The position numbers and the translations under genes are program-made. The notes under the pieces were generated by a model. That model was not told where the DNA came from, ran no database searches, and saw only the letters and a program-made list of their open reading frames with translations. Source: a bacterium (GTDB taxonomy: Bacteria > Patescibacteriota > UBA1384 > VFKW01). From it: 64,000 nt of DNA. How positions within the stretch are numbered: position 1 is the stretch's first letter; each line of letters opens with the position of its first letter. The DNA is taken from assembly GCA_030647355.1 (NCBI GenBank), contig JAUSIS010000013.1:177165-241164 (forward strand), in the 5' to 3' direction. This document shows positions 3,369 through 62,084 of this stretch, piece by piece.

Positions 3369-3391
3369 CGTACTTCTTACTGCTTACTTTC

Positions 3392-3583
3392 TTACTGCTT
3401 ATCTTTGTAGCACTCGCATTCGCATTCACCGGTCGTGCAACATTTGCATTGGCACTGGCAGCGTTTCCCTAGATCGCAAACATTGCCTACATGCTCTAGT
3501 TTCTCGTCCACTTCCGGCTTTCTATTTCGCAAAAAGCCCAATATCTCATCCAATTTAGCCAGAATCTCCTCGTCTTTATCCAT
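3392..3583 (-). CDS. Small cysteine-rich protein (metallothionein-like or RiPP-precursor-like), 63 aa
   Basis: Strong SD (AGGAGG). Acidic helical N-terminal half (MDKDEEILAKLDEILGFLRN) then 11 Cys in the last 28 aa (CDLGKRCQCQCKCCTTGECECECY). 52 nt downstream of the VanW gene on the same strand. Confidence 0.5.
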   Translation of the reverse strand: MDKDEEILAKLDEILGFLRNRKPEVDEKLEHVGNVCDLGKRCQCQCKCCTTGECECECYKDKQ

Positions 3584-3634
3584 ATGCCTCCTGATAATTA
3601 TTTACTCTCTAACTATAACACAAACGTCAATACC

Positions 3635-5650
3635 CTACAGGCTGGGCGGTGGCGCAGGCGGAGTTTCGACAACAGGAGTAGCCACCGGAACCGGTACCGG
3701 CGCTACAGGCACAGGTTTAGTCCCCACTAAATACTTCGCTCCCCAGGGCTTGAATTTACTGTTAAAAGTCTGTTTATTGATCTCTTGCCCGCCCCTCACC
3801 ACAGAGTAATTAACCACTACTGTCGCTCCCGGGTGCGATCCTTCCAGTTGCTGTGTCTGCCCAACAAACAATGTATCGGTATTAATATACTGGGCCGCGG
3901 GCGCCGGAATAACATTTGATATCGCAGGAGTCGAAATCGTCGCCACTCTTCCGTCTTTTGTCCCCCAAAAATCAAATGTTAATTTATTGCCTTCAACTCT
4001 TCCTTGCACTAAAATCCACGCTCCCGTATCATTCACAAACCTCAAATCAGGATGGGGCCCGTAAATCGTCGAATCCAATCCCGGGCCTAAATATTTTCCA
4101 TTCCCATCCGTCTCATAATAACCCACCCGATAAGCATGATTCTTCCGTTCCGTAATCTTCAATCCTGAATATAAAGCTGACCGAAATAGGGTAGAAGACA
4201 CCTGGCACAAACCTCCTCCATATTCCGGAATCGTCTGCGAGCCCTTAATAACCAGCCCCTGAACAAACCCGCTTGAGGCATCAACATTGCCAATTGCTTT
4301 AACTGTAGAAAATTCTTCCCCCGGTTTTATAAGCGTCCCCGTTACAATCCTGGCCCCGTTTGCAATATTATGCTTACGTGCATCACTGCTTCCCTTAAAA
4401 TTAGTCGCCCCACTACCGACTATCTCCTTTATTCCCAAATTCATATAATTAGCTTCCGTAACGTCGGGCTCCACCACCTTTACAGCCAGCTCTATATCCG
4501 ATTGCTGACCATCCTGAATTGCCCCTATAATCGGACCTAAGCTGGCATCTTGATCAAAAACATATCCTTCTTTACTCGGTGCCGTCACAGTCAGAACCCC
4601 GTTTGCATCCATACTCAACCTGGCATTCTGCGGCGCTCCGTCAATGTCTTTCGATATCTTTTTCAAATATGACTTGACTTCCTGCTGATCGACATAAGAG
4701 GTCAATTGATATTGGCCTGGAGCACCTTCAACACCAACTGATTTGAATTTTATCCAGTTCGAAAATGTATCGGTCCCCACTACCCAAGCCCCCTTCTGCC
4801 ATTTCAGACTCAATTTACTCTTAAGCATCGTCAAAACCTGCTGGCGGGCATTTTCTGTATCTCCTAATGTCACCTTAGGATGGGAAGTAAAAACTTGGAC
4901 CAAAACCTTCTTTTTTACCATATTATCAAAATTTCGCTTAATTGATTTCTCCAGAGCAACTTTATCCACTCTCAAGCCAGTTCTCTCTTGGACGAAGGTA
5001 ACATTGTTGTTTTTTATCACGCCTGTCGCATCTTTTTCCGGAATATCAACATCCTCCGCTATCTTGCTGACAAAACCATCAAATGCTTCCTTGTCAAAAC
5101 TATACACTGGCAATACCTTGCTAGCCCTGCCTAGAGCCGCTAGGCGACTCCCTAATCGCCTCCAGAAGGTTTTCTCCCTCCCTACCCCATAAACTGCCCT
5201 TGCAGTTTTTGTGGCATCATAGGAAAGCTTGATGTCGCTCAAGGGCAATTCCCAATCTTTATCCTGATACTGAACCGCTATTGTCTCTCCTTCAAACTCC
5301 CTCACCCGTTGACCAACAACTTTTTCAATATCCCGTAACGGCCTACTCCCCACATTCATCCCTGCCATAACTACTCTCGGATACGACTTCTCTCTATAAG
5401 AAAGAATATATATTCCATAAATAATAGCTAAGAGACAGACCGCTAGCACCATAAGTGAACCCCACCGGTAATAACTGGCTTTACCCCTATCTGTTTTTCT
5501 TAAAGATAGACCCAATGCACCCAGAGAGATAAAACTCAAAATAGCCGCTAAATAGTATTTCGCTTTAGCTGGTTTCAAATATCTTCTAATTACCCAAAAA
5601 ACGTCCCATCCCTGTTTCTTGGGTTCTTTTTTGACTTTTTTCTTTGCCAC
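3635..5650 (-). CDS. VanW-domain protein with N-terminal TM anchor and Pro-rich C-terminus
   Basis: 671 aa. Lys-rich N-terminus plus a single TM. VanW-like core (GGGLCQVSSTLFRSALYSGLKITERKNHAYRVGYYE). C-terminal PVPVAPVPVPVATP low-complexity tail. Confidence 0.7.
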   Translation of the reverse strand: MAKKKVKKEPKKQGWDVFWVIRRYLKPAKAKYYLAAILSFISLGALGLSLRKTDRGKASYYRWGSLMVLAVCLLAIIYGIYILSYREKSYPRVVMAGMNVGSRPLRDIEKVVGQRVREFEGETIAVQYQDKDWELPLSDIKLSYDATKTARAVYGVGREKTFWRRLGSRLAALGRASKVLPVYSFDKEAFDGFVSKIAEDVDIPEKDATGVIKNNNVTFVQERTGLRVDKVALEKSIKRNFDNMVKKKVLVQVFTSHPKVTLGDTENARQQVLTMLKSKLSLKWQKGAWVVGTDTFSNWIKFKSVGVEGAPGQYQLTSYVDQQEVKSYLKKISKDIDGAPQNARLSMDANGVLTVTAPSKEGYVFDQDASLGPIIGAIQDGQQSDIELAVKVVEPDVTEANYMNLGIKEIVGSGATNFKGSSDARKHNIANGARIVTGTLIKPGEEFSTVKAIGNVDASSGFVQGLVIKGSQTIPEYGGGLCQVSSTLFRSALYSGLKITERKNHAYRVGYYETDGNGKYLGPGLDSTIYGPHPDLRFVNDTGAWILVQGRVEGNKLTFDFWGTKDGRVATISTPAISNVIPAPAAQYINTDTLFVGQTQQLEGSHPGATVVVNYSVVRGGQEINKQTFNSKFKPWGAKYLVGTKPVPVAPVPVPVATPVVETPPAPPPSL

Positions 5651-5744
5651 TTCTCTCCTTGTAGCTCTTCAATCGAATTGTACCGCCCAATCTCTCCTTT
5701 GTCAAAACCCACTTGTTAAAACGGCCGCCGCCACTCTTCTTTAC

Positions 5745-6170
5745 CTCTTCCTGCTCTAAAAACAGGATGTGCCTTAAAAAGACATCTCGCAAATTTATAA
5801 GCTTGGTCTCTTTTCCTTTTCTTCAAGATTGAAATATGGTGTTTGAGAGGTATCTCGGAGGCATACTCGCCTCCTTTCTCTAAAAAACGAAATATGCTTT
5901 ATTAAAGGTCTCTCGCAGGTGAAGCAAGCTCAGTCTTTCTCGGTCCCATTTCTCTTCCAACCAAGAAGAATGTTGTCTTTCGAGAGGTATCTCGTAGGTC
6001 GAGAGGGCAATCGTCACTTCTCCCCTTCTAAAAACAGAATATGCATTGAAAAGACATCTCGGAGGTTTGCAAGCTTGGTTCCGCCAGCCGGCGGATTGCA
6101 AACCGAGAGTAAGCGCCGTTTGCCGCTGGAGCAAACGGACGCGGTCTTTGAAAAGCATATCCTGTTTTAT
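5745..6170. repeat. Tandem array of about 145-bp imperfect repeats (about 2.5 copies plus one inverted partial copy) with a periodic GRYATCTCG motif
   Basis: Repeated blocks ctaaaaacagRatRtgcNttaaaaagacatctcgcaNN...aagcttgg and gaaatatggtgtttgagaggtatctcggagg...ctcctttctc. Core GRYATCTCGNAGG at 5781, 5849, 5906, 5986, 6053. Inverted copy of aaaacaggatatgc at 6141-6165. Confidence 0.7.
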
Positions 6171-6174
6171 CTCT

Positions 6175-6408
6175 TTATTCTCCCCTCAAAATCTCCTGCA
6201 AAACAGCCCTTGCCAGATTTTCCCGCCTCTTTTCCATCTTTTTATCACAAATGAGTTCGCTGTAGATCGCATCGCCTTCTTGAGCATCTTTATCCAAAAA
6301 ACGCCTCGGCACTACCAATTCTTGCCCCTCATACAAAAGCACCGCCTTTGCCCCCTCAAATCTATCTAAGATGAAATATAATTCTTTTGAATTAATTCTT
6401 TGGGACAA
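6175..6408 (-). CDS. DUF3006-like small protein
   Basis: 77 aa. Pattern ILDRFEGAKAVLLYEGQELVVPRRFLDKDAQEGDAIY resembles the DUF3006 family (IDRFEG..AVLE....VPR..LP..AKEGD). Confidence 0.45.
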   Translation of the reverse strand: MSQRINSKELYFILDRFEGAKAVLLYEGQELVVPRRFLDKDAQEGDAIYSELICDKKMEKRRENLARAVLQEILRGE

Positions 6409-6582
6409 GTTGACCTCCGTTACAAATCCAAAATTCGAATTTCAAATATCAAATCAATACCCAAGCCCAAAATCCAAATCTTGACATTTAGCCATTTGGG
6501 CTTCATTTGGCATTGAAAATTGGAAATTTGACATTAAATCTCCCTCAGTACTTATCAGCTTAATTCTTACCAGCTTATTAGC

Positions 6583-8595
6583 TTATTTCACTATAAACCT
6601 GACAATCAGCAGCGCCACAATATTCAACACCTTAATCATCGGATTGATCGCCGGACCGGCTGTATCTTTGTAAGGATCGCCAACCGTATCGCCCGTAACC
6701 GCCGCTTTGTGCGCTTCCGAACCTTTTCCGCCCAAATTACCTTCTTCAATGTACTTCTTGGCATTATCCCAAGCCGCCCCGCCAGTTGTCATCGAAATCG
6801 CTACAAACAAACCTGTTATAATCGCTCCGACCAGCATTCCACCCAGCGCCTGCGCGCCCAAGCCGAATCCAACGATAAACGGTGCCGCAATCGGTAACAA
6901 TGCCGGAAAAATCATCTCTCTTTGCGCCGCGGCAGTCACGATATCCACACATCTTGAATAATCCGGCTTTACCTTGCCTTCCATTATCCCTTTTCTCTCC
7001 TTAAACTGACGACGCACTTCCTGTACTACCGCACCGGCCGCTTTCCCCACCGCTTCCATCGAAAGCGCCCCAAAGAAGTAGGGGAGTAGTCCCCCGATAA
7101 ATAACCCGATCAATACTTTCGGTTCTTCAATCGAGAAACTAATGTGCTTGCCCATGTCGGCAATTTCTTGCGTATATGCAGAAAACAAGACAATCGCCGC
7201 CAATCCCGCCGAGGCAATAGCATAGCCCTTGGTTACCGCTTTGGTCGTATTGCCCACAGCATCCAGTGGATCCGTCACAGCCCGCACCTTATCACCCATC
7301 TCGGCCATCTCGGCAATTCCTCCGGCATTATCAGTAATCGGACCATAAGCATCAATCGCCACAATAATTCCTGTCATGGATAACATAGCAAACGCCGCTA
7401 CTGCCACTCCATATAATTCAGCCAAATTGTATGAAACCAAAACCCCAGCGGCAATCAGAAGGACCGGCCAGAAAGTCGATCTCATAGATAATGCCAAACC
7501 GGCAATAATATTCGTTCCATGCCCCGTAACTGACGCTTCCGCCACTTTCTGAACAGGTCTGTTCTTGGTAGATGTGTAATATTCGGTAATAATCACCATT
7601 CCTGCCGTCACTACCACGCCAACCAACGAACAATAGAACAGATCCATAACTGTCACGCCTTTCAAACCCTTCATCATCCAGTTTGTGATAGGGTAGAAAG
7701 CCGCAATGGCAATAACCGCCGAAACAATCAAGCCTTTATACAACGCTTTCATAATGTCATTATCTTTACCCAACCTGACAAAGAATGTCCCGATAACCGA
7801 AGCCAAAACTGATACCCCGCCCAAAGCTAGAGGATAGAGAACTGCATTCTCATTGTTTTTAAATAGTAAATTACCCAGTAACATCGCCGCTACAGCCGTC
7901 ACCACATAAGTTTCGAACAGATCAGCCGCCATACCCGCGTCATCTCCGACGTTATCGCCTACGTTATCGGCAATAACTGCCGGATTTCTTGGATCATCTT
8001 CCGGAATTCCCGCTTCCAATTTACCGACCAAATCAGCGCCGACATCGGCTGCTTTAGTATAAATTCCGCCTCCCAATCGAGCAAAAATAGAAATAAGCGA
8101 GGCTCCGAATGCCAAACCAATCAAACTCTTAACATCATGCGTAACAGAATAAAAAACCGTCACGCCAAGTAATGCCAAACCCGCTACCAGTAAACCAGTT
8201 ACAGCACCTCCGCGAAATGCCAAAGTTAAAGCTTGTCCTAAACCCTGTCTGGCTTTCTCGGCTGTCCTGACATTAGCTCTAACTGCTACATTCATGCCAA
8301 TATAACCGGCTGCTGCCGATAAAATCGCTCCCACGGCAAAGCCCCAAGCTGTTGTCCAGCCCAGTTGTTTGACAAAACCAATAACTAAAAATAATACTAA
8401 AGCTACCATCGCTACCACGCGATATTGACGATTCAAATATGCCGAAGCGCCCTGCTGAATCGCTAGTGCGATTTCCTGCATTTTCTTGTTGCCAGCATCT
8501 TGTGATAAAACCCAGCGAATTAAATAAACACCATACAAAATGGTGATAATTGAGGCACCGACTGCCAAACGAACAGGTGTAAGCCACTCTGGCAT
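6583..8595 (-). CDS. hppA: Membrane-bound proton/sodium-translocating pyrophosphatase
   Basis: 670 aa polytopic protein with hallmark H+-PPase motifs ([39 protein letters not shown]). Confidence 0.93.
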
Positions 8596-18560: not shown

Positions 18561-18664
18561 ACCTCCGTTGTTTTTTAGTAAAATCGCTGCGACTTTACTG
18601 AGCGGTTGACTTTCTCAAGATCGTCAAGTAAAATCCAAATAGAACATAAAAAATAAAATATATG

Positions 18665-18800
18665 TCTTATCAAGAGTGACGCTAGGGAATTGGCCCAGTG
18701 ATCGTCCAGCAACCTTAAATCTAGTAGCTTATATGCTTACTGCTTACCAGCTTACTAACTTATTCGGTGCTAAATCCAAGCCCCAGAGGCAAGATAATAC
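18665..18800 (+). promoter_or_regulatory. SAM-I (S-box) riboswitch in the metK leader
   Basis: tcttatcaagag / gctagggaattggcccagtgatcgtccagcaacc / ggtgctaaatcc / gataa match the SAM-I consensus P1-P2-P3 and P1 closing. The P3 loop carries a copy of the cttactgcttaccagcttac dispersed repeat. Confidence 0.75.
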
Positions 18801-18804
18801 ACTC

Positions 18805-18827
18805 AGCGCCTCACGGCGCCTTTTTAA
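18805..18827 (+). terminator. Riboswitch expression-platform terminator
   Basis: gcgcctcacggcgcc hairpin then ttttt, 30 nt before the metK ATG. Confidence 0.6.
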
Positions 18828-18856: not shown

Positions 18857-20023
18857 ATGGAAAGAACACTTTTTACGTCTGAATCGGTTACAGAGGGACA
18901 CCCCGACAAAATGGCTGACCAAATTTCCGATGCGTTGCTTGATGCCCTTCTGGAAAAAGATGAAAAATCCAGGGTGGCAATCGAAACGCTTCTTACTAAT
19001 GGAGTCTGTATCATTGCCGGAGAAGTCACTACCAACGCCTATGTAGATATGGCAAAAATCGCCCGCAAAGTAATCAAGGAAATTGGTTACAATGGCTGCG
19101 GCTTCCATCATGAAACAAGCGGAGTCATGACAGCCATTAAAGAGCAATCTTCCGATATTGCCCAAGGTGTTGACAGCTATGTCAAAACTGAAAGCGGTAA
19201 GATCGTCAGAGAAGATCTCGAGCATCTGGGCGCCGGCGATCAAGGATTAATGTTCGGATACGCCTGCAATGAAACGCCCGAGCTGATGCCCCTGCCAATA
19301 ATTCTCGCTCAACGGCTATGTCAAAAATTAGCATCCGTACGTAAAAAAGGGACTATTACCGGCTTAAGACCAGACGGTAAATCGCAAGTTACCATCGAGT
19401 ACGTTGACGACAAACCAAGCAGAATCCACACTGTACTCATTGCCGCCCAGCACGACCCATATAAAGACATCAAAAAACTCCGCAAAGAAATAACCGATAA
19501 AGTCATTAATCCCGTGCTAAAATCTTATGGACATCGGATAGATTCAAAAACCAAGATTTATATCAACACAACCGGCAAATTTGTCATTGGCGGACCGGAA
19601 GGCGACACCGGCTTGACCGGCCGTAAAATCATCGTTGACACTTACGGCGGCTATGCTCGGCATGGCGGAGGCGCTTTCTCGGGCAAGGATCCGTCCAAAG
19701 TTGACCGCTCCGGCGCCTATGCCGCCAGATGGGTAGCCAAAAGCATCGTCGCTTCGGGATTAGCCGAAAAATGCGAGGTTCAATTGGCTTATGCTATAGG
19801 TAAACCGGAACCGCTTTCTATCTATGTTAATACTTTCCAAACTAGTAAAAAGACTGACGAAGAAATAATTAAAAAAATCTCTGACAACTTCGACTTAAGG
19901 CCTGGCATGATTATCAAAAACTTAGGACTAAGACGCCCGTTATACCGCCAGTGTGCCGCTTATGGCCACTTTGGTCGTCCGGAACTAAACCTCCCATGGG
20001 AAAAAGCTAAAAAAATTAGATAG
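18857..20023 (+). CDS. metK: S-adenosylmethionine synthetase
   Basis: 388 aa. [13 protein letters not shown] and [16 protein letters not shown] motifs. RBS aaaggag. Confidence 0.95.
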
Positions 20024-20150
20024 CTTAATTCTTACCGCTTATTGCTTACCAACTTACTCCCAGTCATTGCGAGGCCTCAGCCGTGGCAAACCCCCCATAT
20101 CCTTCGAGCCCGGTCGAGAAGCTCTTCTTAATTCTTACTGCTTATTTCAC
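20024..20150. repeat. Composite dispersed repeat (family A ends plus family B core)
   Basis: cttaattcttaccgcttattgcttacc at each end of a cagtcattgcgaggcctcagccgtggcaaa...gagcccggtcgagaagctcttc core. About 95% identical to the copy at 22040-22160. Confidence 0.6.
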
Positions 20151-20164
20151 TTGGAGAAAATACT

Positions 20165-21094
20165 ATGCCTATCACCGTACACCACCAACCACCAACCACC
20201 AACCACCAACTAGTTATCGTCGGCTCTATCGGGCTAGACGATATTGAAACACCATTTGGCAAGGTTAAATCAGCTTTGGGGGGTAGCGCCATCTATGCAT
20301 CGCAAGCCGCCTCCTATTTTACCAAACCAAGTGTTGTGAGTATCATGGGCAACGATATACCAGAAGAATACTTGAAAATCCTCAACCGGTTCGATATTTC
20401 CGGCATAGCCCTAACTGAAAAAACCTTTCGTTGGACCGGGTCATACGAATATGATATGAATGAAGCCAAAACCATTGATACAAAACTAAATGCCTTATCT
20501 GAATTTGAAGCCAATGTCCCTAAAAATTATCAAGAGGCAAAATATCTCCTTCTCGGTAACATCGACCCCGACCTGCAACTCAAAGTATTAAGCCAAATGA
20601 AAGACCATCCCTTCACCTTGCTTGATACAATGAATTTTTGGATAACTTCGAAGCGCGACAAACTCGAACAAATAATCAATAAAGTCAACTTTTTGGTGAT
20701 CAACGAGGGGGAAGCAAGACAATTCTGCCAAACACCCAACCTGATAAAAGCCGGAAAAATGTTGCTCAATCTAGGACCAAAATTTATAGTCATCAAAAAA
20801 GGGGAACATGGTGCCTTGTTATTCTCTAATAATGATTTCTTCTCTGCTCCCAGCTATCCCCTGGAAGAATTAAAAGATCCGACCGGTTGCGGCGACTCAT
20901 TTGCTGGCGGGCTAATCGGTTATCTTGCCAAAACCGACCAAATTAGCGAAAAAAACATCAGAAAAGCCATTATTTATGGTACAGCCGTCGCTTCGTTTTG
21001 CGCTGAAGATTTTGGCACCAAGAAAACTATTAAATTAACAATTAAAGATATCGAGGAGCGATATGACTTTCTCACCAAAATCAGACAATTTTAA
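20165..21094 (+). CDS. PfkB-family carbohydrate/nucleoside kinase (probable adenosine kinase)
   Basis: 309 aa. Ribokinase-like fold. C-terminal DPTGCGDSFAGGLIGYL anion-hole motif. Sits between metK and ahcY. N-terminus contains HQPPTTNHQPPTTNHQ from a caccaac x4 DNA repeat (20180-20210). Confidence 0.75.
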   Translation: MPITVHHQPPTTNHQLVIVGSIGLDDIETPFGKVKSALGGSAIYASQAASYFTKPSVVSIMGNDIPEEYLKILNRFDISGIALTEKTFRWTGSYEYDMNEAKTIDTKLNALSEFEANVPKNYQEAKYLLLGNIDPDLQLKVLSQMKDHPFTLLDTMNFWITSKRDKLEQIINKVNFLVINEGEARQFCQTPNLIKAGKMLLNLGPKFIVIKKGEHGALLFSNNDFFSAPSYPLEELKDPTGCGDSFAGGLIGYLAKTDQISEKNIRKAIIYGTAVASFCAEDFGTKKTIKLTIKDIEERYDFLTKIRQF

Positions 21095-21147
21095 ATAAAA
21101 TCTCAAAATGTACTACCAAAAACCCCATAATATGATATAATTAAGAT

Positions 21148-21420
21148 ATGAATTATCAAAAATACACTTGGTATAATCGAAACGCAAAACTAGACAACCC
21201 CGAGACAATCCATCAAGTACTGTCATTTGGGAAAATTGATGAGATCAAGAAGATGGAACACATGCTTGGGTTAGAACAAATCACGCAAGTATATTTAAAA
21301 TATCCAAAAAATATTTATTCCCGACCGGTTTTCGCCTTTATCAACAAATATATTCTCAAAAACAAGGAGCCCATAGATGAGCGAAAATATCTCAAAAATA
21401 CATCTCGAAATCTTGAGTAA
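21148..21420 (+). CDS. Hypothetical small protein, possible antitoxin partner of the AbiEii-like gene
   Basis: 90 aa. Overlaps the downstream nucleotidyltransferase gene by 44 nt. No recognisable motif. Confidence 0.3.
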   Translation: MNYQKYTWYNRNAKLDNPETIHQVLSFGKIDEIKKMEHMLGLEQITQVYLKYPKNIYSRPVFAFINKYILKNKEPIDERKYLKNTSRNLE

Positions 21421-22039
21421 ACAGCAACAAGAAGTTCTGTTAAAACTCCAGCCGGTCCTAAAAGATTTCGTCCTCGGCGGCGGTACGGCGTTGGCGCTAC
21501 AGATCAAACATCGGCAATCTTTCGATTTCGATTTCTTTACTCTAAAACCAATTGATAAAAATCTACTGGAGAAAATTAGTCAACTCGGTTTTTCGTCAAC
21601 TGCGCCAATATTTGATAGCGTTGATGAATTAACTCTGATTATTGACAATGAAATCAAAATAACCTTTTTGTCTTATCCGTTTTCTAAAATATTTAATCTC
21701 GTTTTTCTAGATCAAAACATCCAAACATTCTCCCTCTCCGGCCTTGCAGCCCAAAAAGCTTATACAATCGGTAGGGGTGGAGTCTGGCGCGATTATTATG
21801 ATATTTTTACCTTACTTCGCCACAAATTTTTTACTCTAAAGGAAATCATCGGATTGACCCAGAAAAACTACGGTGACATTTTTAATCCCAAGCTGTTTTT
21901 GTCGCAGCTGGTCTATTTCGAGGACATTCAGGATTACTCCATTGAGCCAATCAATAATAGCTTAAACCCAATAGCTAGTAACGAAGTTAAAGCTTTTTTA
22001 GAAGAAGAAGTAGAAAAATATCTTGAAAGCATCAAATAG
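21377..22039 (+). CDS. AbiEii/AbiGii-family nucleotidyltransferase (type IV toxin-like, DUF1814)
   Basis: 220 aa. N-terminal FVLGGGTALALQIKHRQSFDFDFF matches the LKGGTAL...R.S.DIDF motif of AbiEii nucleotidyltransferases. Confidence 0.6.
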   Translation: MSENISKIHLEILSKQQQEVLLKLQPVLKDFVLGGGTALALQIKHRQSFDFDFFTLKPIDKNLLEKISQLGFSSTAPIFDSVDELTLIIDNEIKITFLSYPFSKIFNLVFLDQNIQTFSLSGLAAQKAYTIGRGGVWRDYYDIFTLLRHKFFTLKEIIGLTQKNYGDIFNPKLFLSQLVYFEDIQDYSIEPINNSLNPIASNEVKAFLEEEVEKYLESIK

Positions 22040-22160
22040 TCTTATTTCTTACCAGCTTACTCCCAGTCATTGCGAGGCCTCAGCCGTGGCAATCCCCCCC
22101 ATATTCTTCGAGCCCGGTCGAGAAGCTCTTCTTACTACTTACTAGCTTATTGCTTACTAG
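22040..22160. repeat. Composite dispersed repeat, second copy
   Basis: cagtcattgcgaggcctcagccgtggcaatccccccc...gagcccggtcgagaagctcttc flanked by cttaYttcttac...gcttattgcttac motifs. Confidence 0.6.
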
Positions 22161-26076: not shown

Positions 26077-26289
26077 AAGATTACATGGGATTTATCAGCT
26101 AATTAGCTTATCCCACCTGCAGAACCCCGCTAAAGGCGGTAGCCACTTATTAGCTTACAAGCTTATTGCATATTAATATTATCGTTCGAGGCCAGGCCGA
26201 GAACTTAACCTTTTAGTTCTCGATTCTCTTCGATCTCTCGAACAATATTCTATTCTTAATCCTTACAATCTTACCAGCTTATCGCTTGC

Positions 26290-57262: not shown

Positions 57263-57410
57263 CTTTCTACCTTCCTCGCTTAGTTAGTTATTCTTTGTTA
57301 AAAACCCTCGCGCAGACCGAAGCGGGCATGGTGTCGCAAAGCGACGAGCAAGGACGAGCGGGAGCGCAATTTTCTCGCTGGGAAAATTGATAGCGTGTTT
57401 TCGGCAAAGC

Positions 57411-58133
57411 TTAACTAACCGTTTGTTTGGCCTTCTCCGCCATAATATTACTAATACTCAAAAGTCCCTCAAATGTCCCCGCATCTTCCCAAACACCTTC
57501 AATAATATTTACTTTCAATTCTTTCATCTGTAAAAACACATTATTCAAATCGGTTATTTCAATCTCTCCTCGAGCGGATGGCTTCAAATTCTTCGCCAAC
57601 TGAATCACCTGATTATCGTAAACATATAACCCCACCACCGCATAGTTGCTTTTTGGCTTTGTTGGCTTCTCTTCGATCGAGAGAACGCTCATTTTGTCGT
57701 CAAAATCCACTACTCCGAACCTCTCCGGATCTTCCACCTCTTTGGCAAATACCATCCCGCCTTTTTCAAACGATTTAATCTGCTTAGTAAAATCGTGGTC
57801 AAAGATATTATCACCCAAAATCATTGCAACTGACTCCTCGCCTATAAAATCCTCACCTACAATGAATGCATCTGCCAATCCTCTGGGTTCCTCTTGAATC
57901 GCATAACTGAATTTAGCCCCAAAATCTTTGCCTGAACCCAAAAGATGCATAAAATGGCCGGCATGTTCCGGTGCTACGATAATTAATATCTCCTCAATAC
58001 CAGCTTTTACCAATGTCTCAAGCGGATAAAAAATCATCGGCTTGTTATACACCGGCAATAACTGCTTGGAGGTGACTTTAGTTAGCGGTCTAAGTCGTGT
58101 TGCTTTCCCTCCCGCTAAAACAATCCCTTTCAT
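57411..58133 (-). CDS. rfbA: Glucose-1-phosphate thymidylyltransferase (short form)
   Basis: 240 aa. MKGIVLAGGKATRLRPLT...KQLLPVYNKPMIFYPL. Confidence 0.9.
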   Translation of the reverse strand: MKGIVLAGGKATRLRPLTKVTSKQLLPVYNKPMIFYPLETLVKAGIEEILIIVAPEHAGHFMHLLGSGKDFGAKFSYAIQEEPRGLADAFIVGEDFIGEESVAMILGDNIFDHDFTKQIKSFEKGGMVFAKEVEDPERFGVVDFDDKMSVLSIEEKPTKPKSNYAVVGLYVYDNQVIQLAKNLKPSARGEIEITDLNNVFLQMKELKVNIIEGVWEDAGTFEGLLSISNIMAEKAKQTVS

Positions 58134-59023: not shown

Positions 59024-59049
59024 GGCGGGACACCCGGGTCTAGAACCTT
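59024..59049. repeat. GGCGGGACACYCGGGYCTAGAACCTT motif, copy 1
   Basis: Identical-orientation copies at 59024, 60828 and 62059, each in a minus-strand intergenic region. Confidence 0.6.
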
Positions 59050-59082: not shown

Positions 59083-59649
59083 TTATTGTGCGGCTGGCAA
59101 TTCGGGTGGTAGGGATTGTTGATACAATGTTTGCAACCAGTACGTACCTAGTATTACTAAGCCGACTACTATGATAATAGATAGGATAAAAACAACAACA
59201 CCCCATTTCGTCCATGATTGCTGGACGGCCTTAAATTGTTCCACGTTTTCAAACTTACGGTTCTTCCATGCCCATTCATTACCTTTAATTCCCAGAATGA
59301 TAGCTACGACTAAGGTCATCGGACCAATTAGAGTTAAGAGTATGACACAGATTTGATAGGCAATTGACCAAGCTTGTACGCTACCGTTAATACCAATGAT
59401 ACCCAGGATAACGGTTATAGCTAAACTTAATGGCCCAATGAGAGCAAATAATCCAATCCAAACCCGATTGCCGATTGACCAAATCCATGTCAAGGAAAAA
59501 GCGCCCCAATTCCATCGATTTAACTCTGGAGGAAAAGGTCTATTAGAGCCACCGGCACTCGGAGTTGCATTAGCAGAGGGACCAGTCAGCCTAGACAAAG
59601 TATTGTCTGCAGACGAGGCAGGGGACGTCGAAGATATAGTTTCTTCCAT
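59083..59649 (-). CDS. Hypothetical membrane protein with Pro/Ala/Ser-rich N-terminus
   Basis: 188 aa. Low-complexity N-terminus then about 4 TM helices. Confidence 0.4.
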   Translation of the reverse strand: MEETISSTSPASSADNTLSRLTGPSANATPSAGGSNRPFPPELNRWNWGAFSLTWIWSIGNRVWIGLFALIGPLSLAITVILGIIGINGSVQAWSIAYQICVILLTLIGPMTLVVAIILGIKGNEWAWKNRKFENVEQFKAVQQSWTKWGVVVFILSIIIVVGLVILGTYWLQTLYQQSLPPELPAAQ

Positions 59650-60827: not shown

Positions 60828-60852
60828 GCGGGACACTCGGGTCTAAAACCTT
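60828..60852. repeat. GGCGGGACACYCGGG motif, copy 2
   Basis: agcgggacactcgggtctaaaacctt, 20 nt upstream of the 59863..60807 start and downstream of tRNA-Ser. Confidence 0.55.
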
Positions 60853-60888
60853 CTGACCCTGTCCTCTGCCACCTGTCTTCTGGATTTG

Positions 60889-60975
60889 CGGTGAGGGTGG
60901 GATTCGAACCCACGGAGCCCTTACGAGCTCAACATCTTAGCAGGATGCTGCCTTCAACCTCTCGGCCACCTCACC
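60889..60975 (-). tRNA. tRNA-Ser (anticodon GCU), class II with long variable arm
   Basis: Reverse complement GGTGAGGTGGCCGAGAGGTTGAAGGCAGCATCCTGCTAAGATGTTGAGCTCGTAAGGGCTCCGTGGGTTCGAATCCCACCCTCACCG. Anticodon loop CT-GCT-AA, GTTCGAATC T-loop. No encoded CCA. Confidence 0.85.
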
Positions 60976-61980
60976 ATATGAATCCAAATACTTCTTAATA
61001 TGTTTAGGATTGTGACTTCCTATTTCTTGAAAATATTTTCTAACATCCTTGGTATCATACAATCTTAAATCTCCACGACAATCTACCTTAGGATGAATAC
61101 CAATCTGCTCTAAAATTATCTTGACCGATTCTATCAAATTCACTGACCGTGAGCTAAATCCTATTTTATAATAAATGTATTGCTTACCTCTCACGGAATA
61201 TCTATGCTTGTACACACATCCATCTGTATCAACCAACCCCCTAACACAAGCTAACGAATATTTCATATCCTTCTTGATCCATTCCGGAATATCAATTTGA
61301 TGTTTAACCTTATTACCCTTAACCAATCCATTCTTTAATAAATACGCTACTAAATTTTTTCTAGAAACCTGAATATTTACTACGGAATTTCGAATTATTT
61401 CGCTGGGCTGAATTCTAAAAAGTTTTATCATCAATTGACAAACATATTTTGCATATTCCCGATCGTCAACCCGATTTAAAGTGATTGTAACCTGATAATC
61501 TGTAATTCCACCATCACCAATCAGTATCCCAAACATTTCTGCTAAATTCACACTTTTTTTGGGGAACAAGACTATTTTTGGACAGCTTATGCTATTTGTC
61601 GAAAAACGCCCTTTGGTTAGCCACCATTCCTCCCACCCTTTTCTCCTTTTCTCCGGATCAGTACAAATTGTTCCATATTTTCTGATTGTTGTCTCTGCAC
61701 CTAATCGGGCAGCTTTTTTTGTTGACCAAAAAGCCGGACGAATTTCAACATCATCTGGTATTTTTATTCCCATATGGCTAACCAACTTATCAACCGCCTT
61801 CTCCGTCATCGAAAAACGCTCCCTCTTCCAATCTGTCAAAGTCCGAACTCCAACTTCGCAGAATACAGACAATTCTAAATTTGACCCAAACACACCCATT
61901 GCTCTGTTTAAAAACTCTGCCTGCTTCCCCTTTAGGAATAACACGCGATTAGAATAATCTTTTTTAATCAATTCCGCCAT
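60937..61980 (-). CDS. LAGLIDADG-family homing endonuclease (double-motif)
   Basis: 347 aa. Two LAGLIDADG motifs (FGILIGDGG and VRGLVDTDGCV). The 3' end overlaps the 5' half of tRNA-Ser(GCU) by 39 nt. Confidence 0.8.
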   Translation of the reverse strand: MAELIKKDYSNRVLFLKGKQAEFLNRAMGVFGSNLELSVFCEVGVRTLTDWKRERFSMTEKAVDKLVSHMGIKIPDDVEIRPAFWSTKKAARLGAETTIRKYGTICTDPEKRRKGWEEWWLTKGRFSTNSISCPKIVLFPKKSVNLAEMFGILIGDGGITDYQVTITLNRVDDREYAKYVCQLMIKLFRIQPSEIIRNSVVNIQVSRKNLVAYLLKNGLVKGNKVKHQIDIPEWIKKDMKYSLACVRGLVDTDGCVYKHRYSVRGKQYIYYKIGFSSRSVNLIESVKIILEQIGIHPKVDCRGDLRLYDTKDVRKYFQEIGSHNPKHIKKYLDSYGEVAERLKAASC

Positions 61981-62058: not shown

Positions 62059-62084
62059 GGCGGGACACTCGGGCCTAGAACCTT
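62059..62084. repeat. GGCGGGACACYCGGG motif, copy 3
   Basis: ggcgggacactcgggcctagaacctt. Preceded at 62030-62053 by gcggtgggggtgagattcgtcc, a degenerate copy of the tRNA-Ser(GCU) 3' end (gcggtgagggtgggattcgaacc). Confidence 0.55.

Follow-up and report, generated by a model that had tools for sequence, protein, structure and literature searches.

The 524-nt gap between a DUF3006 gene and a VanW-domain gene in a 64-kb stretch of contig JAUSIS010000013.1 (the window; positions refer to its plus strand) carries an intact, Y-shaped element of 138 nt (6031..6168), which is predicted to fold into a three-way-junction hairpin and is trailed by four decayed units that share a 13-nt core with it. The element lies on the minus strand, as do all genes around the array, and starts 6 nt past the DUF3006 stop codon. 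It is a new, lineage-restricted structured element, which is undescribed and absent from Rfam. Its helices co-vary among three intact copies, and with a probability of roughly 0.55 we read it as a terminator or a 3'-end RNA element whose tandemly amplified copies have since decayed, a function that we infer from sequence. A first-pass annotation of this DNA had instead taken the repeats for iterons or an array of transcription-factor sites upstream of the VanW gene.

A co-varying three-way junction past the DUF3006 gene

The first 149 nt past the DUF3006 stop codon (6172-6024, minus strand) fold with a minimum free energy of -64.4 kcal/mol, corresponding to z = -6.4. The other 380 nt of the gap (5651-6030) fold no better than shuffled sequence on either strand (z = -0.3 and +0.2). 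In the predicted structure, the outer stem pairs 6168-6155 with 6044-6031 and 6149-6144 with 6055-6050. It encloses two arms: P2, formed by 6142-6130 with 6124-6113, and P3, which is composed of helix 4 (6108-6105 with 6060-6057), helix 5 (6104-6096 with 6072-6064) and helix 6 (6095-6090 with 6085-6080). Bulges are formed by ACCAAGC (6079-6073) and UCC (6063-6061). The outer stem is flanked by AUAAAAC on its 5' side and by GUUUUUAGA on its 3' side, and a run of five U residues (6030-6026) follows the element.

A search with DUF3006 yielded six relatives for comparison. One of them, the Logan contig L149 (run SRR21361134), stems from a related member of the Patescibacteria, and its DUF3006 protein is 77% identical at the amino acid (aa) level. 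L149 carries two tandem copies of the element at 3741-3879 and 3929-4066, followed by one unit at ~4102-4151 that resembles the B-type remnants described below. Its DUF3006 gene spans 3501-3734, so the first element starts 6 nt past the stop codon, as in the window. L149 copy 2 is 84% identical to the window element, compared to 74% nucleotide identity between the adjacent DUF3006 genes, and copy 1 is 64-67% identical to the other two. The L149 copies lie between convergent genes, after which comes the 3' end of a TrmB-like gene. No VanW gene is found near them, no downstream gene of L149 has a homologue in the window, and no other terminator-like hairpin was detected between the convergent genes.

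All three intact copies fold separately into a common architecture. A covariance model built from them (R1) gave 160.7 bits for the window copy, compared to 150 and 129 bits for the pair in L149. In the R1 alignment of the three copies, 97.4% of the pair cells form standard pairs, and 23 of the 51 pairs show compensatory changes on both sides. None of five measures was reached in 500 column shuffles, and sliding the partners by 1-3 columns left only 1-3 compensatory pairs. RNAalifold, applied to a plain MAFFT alignment, recovered both inner arms independently, with 12 compensatory pairs. Compensatory changes occur in five of the six helices, the exception being helix 4 (UCUC/GAGA), which never varies. 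They affect 8 of the 14 pairs of the outer stem, and the stem of L149 copy 1 has a wholly different sequence with its pairing intact. Variation is also essentially absent from both bulges (ACCAAGC and UCC) and from the CUUAC junction.

On the gene-sense strand the structure contains 8 G-U pairs compared to 1 A-C mismatch, and at all three loci the element has the orientation of its flanking genes. The excess of G-U pairs together with the shared gene orientation argues for a sense-strand RNA, and the sequences thus favor a Y-shaped element that would act as RNA on the minus strand.

Five units sharing one core

The array fills the gap from the DUF3006 stop codon (6175) to the VanW GTG start (5650), and the whole gap is 100% identical in an independent assembly (Logan contig L001, run SRR13727527). 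The 13-mer GRYMTCTCGNARR matches five times in 64 kb, all within 5781-6065 and none elsewhere. Its plus-strand starts are 5781, 5849, 5907, 5986 and 6053; 0.17 matches were expected, and five were reached in 0 of 100 shuffles. The repeated core of the first-pass annotation is therefore real, with four of its positions given correctly and the third, placed at 5906, shifted by one. When up to 3 mismatches were allowed, the additional matches in the window were at chance level and in coding DNA, and none was located at another promoter.

Read on the minus strand, the units U1 to U5 start at 6065, 5998, 5919, 5861 and 5793, with spacings of 67, 79, 58 and 68 nt. Two subtypes alternate in the order A-B-A-B-A, subtype A comprising U1, U3 and U5 and subtype B comprising U2 and U4. 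The A+B double unit measures 146 and 126 bp, consistent with the earlier description of 2.5 units of about 145 bp. Local alignment of the units, compared to dinucleotide shuffles, gave z = 13.0 for U1-U5, 7.8 for U2-U4, 6.6 for U3-U4, 4.8 for U1-U3 and 3.8 for U1-U4. A repeat search returned a 53-nt pair (5755 and 6027) of 83% identity, 272 bp apart, plus a 48-nt family with three copies. Tandem Repeats Finder gave no report at the array, because the copies are only ~60-83% alike and contain indels. The inverted partial unit is present as well, 6144-6168 being 84% complementary to 6031-6055 and to 5759-5783. As a description of a tandem repeat with an inverted partial unit, the first reading of the sequence was correct.

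The core of U1 (CCTCCGAGATGTC / CCUCCGAGAUGUC; 6065-6053, minus strand) corresponds to columns 104-116 of R1. It begins with the final two bases of helix 5 and runs through the UCC bulge, the helix-4 strand GAGA and the junction U to GUC, the first three bases of the outer 3' arm. As the core reaches from the end of helix 5 to the outer 3' arm, U1 is the 3' half of the intact element. According to the model, the 13-mer is the most conserved stretch of the structured element. Nine of 13 invariant columns fall into one interval of 14 columns (permutation p ~0.003), a test that is biased because the units were anchored on the core. In both the window copy and L149 copy 1, a further GAGAU stands immediately ahead of the 5' arm.

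None of the orphan units U2 to U5, all on the minus strand, has a significant fold. Scores below refer to R2, a sequence-only model of the unit. U3 (5873..5935; core 5919-5907; 40.9 bits; fold z = +0.45) and U5 (5747..5808; core 5793-5781; 44.9 bits) are eroded 3' halves of subtype A. Both have no 5' half; what they retain begins at ACCAAGC and continues through the helix-5 strand, the core and the 3' arm into the U-run. The order in U3 is ACTGAGC, helix-5 strand, GAGAG, 3' arm and six U residues. In U5, which is 83% identical to U1 over 53 nt, it is ACCAAGC, helix-5 strand, GAGAT, 3' arm and five U residues. The eroded B-subtype units U2 (5952..6006; core 5998-5986; 36.6 bits; fold z = +0.75) and U4 (5815..5871; core 5861-5849; 38 bits), as well as the unit trailing the L149 copies, retain only the core and a diverged arm. 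U2 keeps CTCTCGA immediately ahead of CCTACGAGAT, an arrangement that looks like helix 4 with the interior of P3 deleted. U4 resembles the trailing unit at L149:4102-4151.

In 111 kb, covering the window and related loci, R2 recovers exactly eight units and nothing more. CGAGA is invariant across all 8 aligned units, the structureless ones included, and in the B-subtype cores it forms part of a small dyad, CGAGA-TACC-TCTCG. A recurrence of AGGGGAGAA follows U1, and one of AGGGGAATAG precedes L149 copy 2. A terminator-like hairpin on the plus strand (5857..5874; GGAGGC-ATACTC-GCCTCC, then TTTCTCT) has no plus-strand gene upstream and is probably a by-product of the U3/U4 junction.

Four other origins of the units were considered and rejected. 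With spacings of 67, 79, 58 and 68 nt the repeat falls in different reading frames, and a coding repeat or pseudogene was dismissed on the grounds that the cores lie in three frames and that the open reading frames (ORFs) across the array (5586-5792, 5880-6158, 5919-6254 and 6046-6369) have no Pfam match even at E <= 1. These ORFs are probably artefacts, as the first-pass annotation had assumed; the one starting at 6158 meets a stop after 12 codons in L149 copy 2, as read by eye. Units carrying a duplicated 3' end of the DUF3006 gene are suggested by the observation that each matches the gene end of its own genome, but the similarity taken by itself is not significant (29/500 and 112/500 shuffles). 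For units as duplicates of the VanW promoter and ribosome-binding site (RBS), the best local alignment of the array with 5725-5640 scored 22, which 69/500 shuffles reached. Finally, the units do not behave as individual small RNA hairpins or terminators, given that single-unit z values range from +0.75 to -1.4 and that the core pairs with differing partners.

Terminator, mobile repeat or binding site

In the relatives L150, L151, L152, L154 and L006/L008, the DUF3006 gene is followed by a simple terminator consisting of A-tract, GC-hairpin and T-tract. It is located at the stop codon in L150 and L151 and 35-77 nt downstream in L152, L154 and L008. The Y-shaped element occupies this same post-DUF3006 position and has similar A-tract/U-tract flanks. 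The bases trailing the simple terminators, where checked, are AGA or AAG, like those trailing the element. Five U residues directly follow the hairpin in two of the copies, that of the window and L149 copy 2. A role of the element in termination is therefore suggested by its position and flanks, which match those of the relatives' terminators, and by L149 having no other hairpin of this kind. Since the array of L149 stands in a context without VanW, the sole constant neighbor of the element is the 3' end of the DUF3006 gene. Elsewhere in the window, the organism uses canonical intrinsic terminators.

Under this interpretation, the array would consist of one intact and four decayed tandem copies of a structured element of ~138 nt. 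The intact element would serve the transcript of the H+-pyrophosphatase (H+-PPase) and DUF3006 genes as an elaborated intrinsic terminator or as a 3'-end-forming or stabilizing structure, and would insulate this transcript from VanW, a gene with a promoter of its own. Local tandem duplication and unequal crossing-over may have enlarged the array before deletion and decay set in. U2 to U5 would then be remnants that kept only the 3' part, i.e., the helix-5 strand, CGAGA, the 3' arm and the U-run, and lost their folding. As L149 also has intact copies followed by a B-type remnant, the tandem state would be older than the split of the two lineages. The window copy appears orthologous to L149 copy 2 and yet stands at the position of copy 1, which implies at least one unequal crossover or deletion.

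Several observations weigh against this interpretation. The covariation comes from only three intact copies in two genomes, with pair counts taken from an alignment fitted to the model; its support is good but thin. The base of the outer stem is A/U-rich, and at 138 nt the hairpin greatly exceeds canonical terminators in size. The U-run is poor in L149 copy 1 and missing from the copy at the rml locus described below. L148, which has the closest DUF3006 protein (84% aa identity), lacks the element and also an obvious terminator, its DUF3006-VanW spacer measuring only 174 nt. Moreover, a plain terminator needs no invariant bulges or loops, so termination is probably not the whole function, and the invariance of CGAGA in structureless units is unexplained by simple neutral decay. 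The invariant ACCAAGC, UCC and CGAGAU suggest an additional sequence-specific partner, either a protein or a tertiary contact.

A candidate for a further copy was found by R1 at a second locus of the window (57282..57420, minus strand; 22.9 bits, E = 0.003, full-length). It shares its strand with the rmlA-like and rmlC-like genes on either side. The match retains the outer stem, a P2 arm with a CCAGC loop, and an ACCAUGC bulge; the middle helix of P3 is broken, and the fold is not significant (z = -0.74). P2 arm and flanks are co-linear with L149 copy 1 (alignment score 32, reached by 1/1000 shuffles). In 853 kb of unrelated DNA, R1 reached a maximum of 17.4 bits, on short hairpins only. By its sequence, this locus is probably a decayed copy of the Y-shaped element, so that the copies found in 64 kb occupy two loci, one of them decayed.

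Searches beyond these loci returned no further copies. A 25-mer gave a single chance match, in Pectobacterium, in a genome-contig collection, and the 25-mer plus two other patterns gave no match or chance matches only in viral contigs. The metagenome pattern CGAGATRYC, gap, CCTNCGAGAKRYC was too loose and returned chance matches, and among 137 loci blastn and R1 found nothing real. Phage and plasmid collections contained no similarity detectable by blastn. Rfam 15, searched with the window and L149, assigned no family to the element at gathering thresholds; up to E = 10 only spurious matches of <=19.7 bits, below the gathering scores, appeared. A literature search on DUF3006, and on structured RNAs or MITEs (miniature inverted-repeat transposable elements) in Patescibacteria, found nothing relevant.

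The copy at the unrelated rml locus, with its P2 arm closest to L149 copy 1, is in line with a selfish, MITE-like interspersed palindromic repeat, the array being a nest of decayed copies without host function. So are the patchy distribution of the element among relatives (present in L149; absent from L148, L150-L152, L154 and L006), its higher identity between genomes than that of the neighboring gene, its many decayed copies and its long terminal inverted arms (~25 nt, 84% complementary), which pair in all three intact copies. Such an origin, which we consider unlikely though by no means negligible, overlaps in part with a terminator role, as inserted elements often act as terminators or mRNA-stability sites. 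However, the arms of L149 copy 1 differ completely from those of copy 2, share almost no sequence with those of the window copy, and still pair, which points to selection for pairing and not for a transposase-binding sequence. No consistent target-site duplication was apparent by eye, the flanks being A/T-rich, and R2 finds no orphan units beyond the two arrays. The phage, plasmid and viral-contig searches were negative, and a Pfam scan of 65 window ORFs detected no transposase, recombinase or reverse transcriptase, nor any replication initiator, Cas or Nop protein.

The invariant motifs allow for two further interpretations. In one, the element would represent a new functional RNA class, restricted to a Berkelbacteria-like lineage, in which ACCAAGC, UCC and CGAGAU are read by a protein or ligand and half-units are kept as extra binding or processing sites. 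We hold this to be doubtful; if true, the locus would be a multi-site RNA platform and not a mere terminator or genomic debris. In the other, which seems rather improbable, the repeated CGAGAU would be the site of a sequence-specific RNA- or DNA-binding protein and the array a multi-site platform, serving as sponge, cooperative array or set of processing sites. The invariance of CGAGA in 8/8 aligned units would be accounted for, as would the clustering of invariant columns in the core, the constancy of helix 4 and its flanks next to the co-variation of all other helices, and the second GAGAU that two of the intact copies (window, L149 copy 1) have ahead of the 5' arm. On the other hand, the locus has no linked gene that is a candidate for the partner, the 64 kb contain no further occurrence of the motif, and the spacing is irregular. 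In addition, the units were recognized via the core, and the conservation is partly a selection effect. Judged by its persistence in decayed copies, CGAGA may nonetheless reflect some sequence-specific recognition on RNA or DNA.

The VanW gene has a promoter of its own between the array and its start (TTGACA-17-TACAAT; 5677..5705, minus strand; 11/12 consensus matches), which is followed by the RBS AAGGAG and the GTG start at 5650. This promoter is kept in all six VanW genes examined (window, L148, L005, L003, L009 and L006), with a spacing of N17-18 and at a distance of 45-55 nt upstream of the start. Among the five relatives, the -35 box is TTGACA in four and TTGACT in L006, and the -10 box is TACAAT, or TAAAAT in L006; an RBS and an M/V-A-K start follow. 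None of these five promoters is accompanied by an array.

That the element regulates read-through of DUF3006 transcription into VanW, as a riboswitch-like or attenuator leader, is highly unlikely. A three-way junction with a closing stem and a subsequent U-run does resemble an aptamer plus terminator, and GUUUGC/GCAAAC, shared by the P2 and P3 stems, would permit alternative pairings. Yet this sharing is not kept in L149 copy 1, and the closing stem, with ~20 bp split over two segments, would need no ligand for its stability. Furthermore, the VanW promoter lies downstream of the element, the L149 copies precede the end of a convergent TrmB-like gene and no regulated gene, and there is no Rfam match.

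The original proposal, i.e., transcription-factor operators, an upstream activating region of VanW or replication-origin iterons, is hardly credible. It draws on five similar sites located 76-370 bp upstream of the VanW -35 box and on the small dyad in the B-subtype cores. Iterons are direct, initiator-binding repeats beside rep or dnaA and an AT-rich unwinding region, and a chromosomal origin is marked by a skew switch. Plasmid iterons and arrays of transcription-factor sites resemble the present array in placing several similar, direct short words within a few hundred bp of non-coding DNA. Here, however, the spacing is not regular, as had been stated, but varies between 58 and 79 bp, and the word belongs to a co-varying 138-nt structure, in which it forms one strand of a conserved RNA helix. 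No Rep- or DnaA-like gene is present among the scanned window ORFs, no initiator or regulator gene lies nearby, and cumulative GC skew is monotonic across the window, with constant sign. The motif is found at no other promoter of the window, and the same promoter serves six VanW genes, five of them arrayless. Nor is the array tied to the VanW gene or to a promoter, since in L149 the element and its trailing unit lie between convergent genes.

Genomic setting and comparison with known repeats

The DUF3006 gene (6175..6408, minus strand; 77 aa; Pfam PF11213, E = 7.6e-11) is the last gene of the H+-PPase/DUF3006 pair, the H+-PPase gene being located upstream at 8595-6583 (minus strand). Downstream of the array lies the VanW/PG_binding_4 gene (3635..5650, minus strand; Pfam PF04294 and PF12229). 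VanW homologues place the window in the Patescibacteria (Candidate Phyla Radiation, CPR), with the nearest named matches in Candidatus Berkelbacteria. The best non-self VanW in the database is 63% identical, and hence no close relative is represented there. The gene content of the window includes nucleotide biosynthesis, S-adenosylmethionine (SAM) metabolism and a large cell-envelope polysaccharide cluster.

In four relatives, a gene for a GIY-YIG protein of 79-95 aa is inserted between the H+-PPase and DUF3006 genes (L150:3182-3421, L151:3023-3310, L152:960-1247 and L153:198-485). In L148, a 23S_rRNA_IVP/Avd-like gene precedes DUF3006 instead. The neighborhood of DUF3006 appears to be a hot spot for small insertions. 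The DUF3006-VanW spacer of the syntenic contigs L006, L007 and L008 measures 760 nt (L006:2241-3001), shows no similarity to the window array and holds a clean bidirectional terminator at 2317-2355.

Further features were observed elsewhere in the window. A SAM-I riboswitch (18664-18800, plus strand; 50.4 bits, above the gathering score) precedes metK (18857-20023), with a terminator-like hairpin beside it at 18806-18819. This layout is ordinary except for a CTTA array embedded in the riboswitch. Such short arrays, with CTTA every 8 nt (CTTANNNNCTTA...), number 15 on the plus strand and 0 on the minus strand, and occur at 3383, 6551-6586, 18728-18763, 20045, 22048, 22138, 23596, 26146-26166 and 26262-26282. 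They are intergenic whatever the direction of the flanking genes; one cluster lies within the SAM-riboswitch match and another directly past the H+-PPase stop codon. The three-copy form was found 4 times compared to 0.04 expected. Given this strict bias, the arrays may be a signal at the DNA level, oriented with replication, or a strand-specific repeat.

Repeats of ~100 nt (20038-20139 and 22041-22143), which are 94-95% identical, flank genes for a pfkB kinase and an AbiEii toxin (20165-22039). Located between metK and the S-adenosylhomocysteine hydrolase gene, the segment resembles a small cassette insertion or a duplication. The 25-mer GCGGGACACTCGGGTCTAAAACCTT occurs three times (59025-59049, 60828-60852 and 62060-62084) with 92-100% identity, two copies standing soon 3' of the two tRNA-Ser genes on the minus strand and the third past the ORF 59083-59649. 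An ORF with a LAGLIDADG_3 homing-endonuclease domain (60937-61980, minus strand) overlaps the 5' part of tRNA-Ser(GCT) (60888-60975) and could be an intron or mobile insertion beside the tRNA, or an over-long ORF call.

Among known systems, the closest kinds are terminator-like or palindromic interspersed repeats that act as RNA, i.e., SPRITE, bcr1, ERIC, BOX and Correia elements (PMC3184786, PMC2649163). One repeat of this kind, found in Firmicutes, is small, structured and non-coding, lies between genes, has a predicted RNA fold like an intrinsic terminator and is located at gene 3' ends (PMC3184786). The Y-shaped element is comparable in standing where relatives have a simple terminator and in its A-tract/U-tract flanks. 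There is no match in sequence or model, however, and the Y-shaped element is a three-way junction with invariant bulges, found in Patescibacteria at two loci per 64 kb.

The bcr1 repeat of the Bacillus cereus group (~155 bp) is a transcribed palindrome, whose RNA structure is maintained by compensatory changes, and ERIC of enterobacteria (~127 bp) can alter mRNA decay when located downstream of a gene (PMC3184786). Both are of similar size to the Y-shaped element and form long imperfect palindromes co-transcribed with their neighbors, and its compensatory changes are like those in bcr1. In contrast to bcr1 and ERIC, which are dispersed in many copies and flanked by target duplications in the form of direct repeats, the Y-shaped element shows no consistent target duplication, and its few copies are mostly in tandem at one locus. 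In BOX of pneumococcus, the sub-repeats of a single intergenic element are arranged as tandem modules, boxA-boxB(n)-boxC (PMC3184786). Inverted-repeat ends are a feature of the Correia elements (CREE) of Neisseria, whose hairpin RNA can be bound or cut by RNase III, with effects on neighboring genes (PMC2649163). By analogy, the outer stem of the Y-shaped element would be a plausible RNase III substrate. It has no sequence relation to BOX or CREE; the modules here are decayed copies and not A, B and C boxes, and no promoter or integration host factor (IHF) site was identified in them.

Several other systems built on tandem units or on Y-shaped RNAs were rejected. CRISPR arrays consist of near-identical repeats of ~25-37 nt with unique spacers, usually next to cas genes. 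Here, the unit identity of ~60-83% extends into the would-be spacers, the period is 58-79 nt, and no Cas family was found among the scanned window ORFs. In type III toxin-antitoxin systems, near-identical tandem units of ~34-36 nt (ToxI-like) lie upstream of a ToxN/AbiQ-type toxin gene. The present units, of 58-79 nt, are divergent, and the downstream gene is VanW/PG_binding_4 and not a ToxN-like endoribonuclease. The ends of integron attC sites carry RYYYAAC and GTTRRRY boxes, none of which was seen by eye in the window copy or in L149 copy 1. A retron, an IS110 bridge RNA or an omega-RNA-like guide, considered for the Y shape, was rejected from context only, there being no reverse transcriptase, recombinase, TnpB or IscB among the 65 ORFs. 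TIGR-Tas arrays combine two alternating 8-12-nt repeats with 9-nt spacers in a 36-nt unit, beside a Tas gene with a Nop domain (PMC12045711). With its period of 58-79 nt, the present array has no such 36-nt unit, and the Pfam scan of the window revealed no protein with a Nop domain.

We regard the significance of the element as moderate, its function being read from sequence and its intact copies coming from two genomes. An apparent set of DNA-binding sites becomes a covariation-supported RNA structure, in a phylum (Patescibacteria/CPR) with few described non-coding RNAs. R1 together with the 3' end of the H+-PPase/DUF3006 pair provides a calibrated model and a genomic anchor for locating more copies. 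More generally, a short word recurring every 60-80 bp in an intergenic gap can be a decaying structured repeat, and annotation as operators or iterons needs comparative evidence. As regards the evolution of such elements, the presence of intact, co-varying copies beside decayed half-copies at one locus points to repeated tandem duplication and deletion at a terminator.

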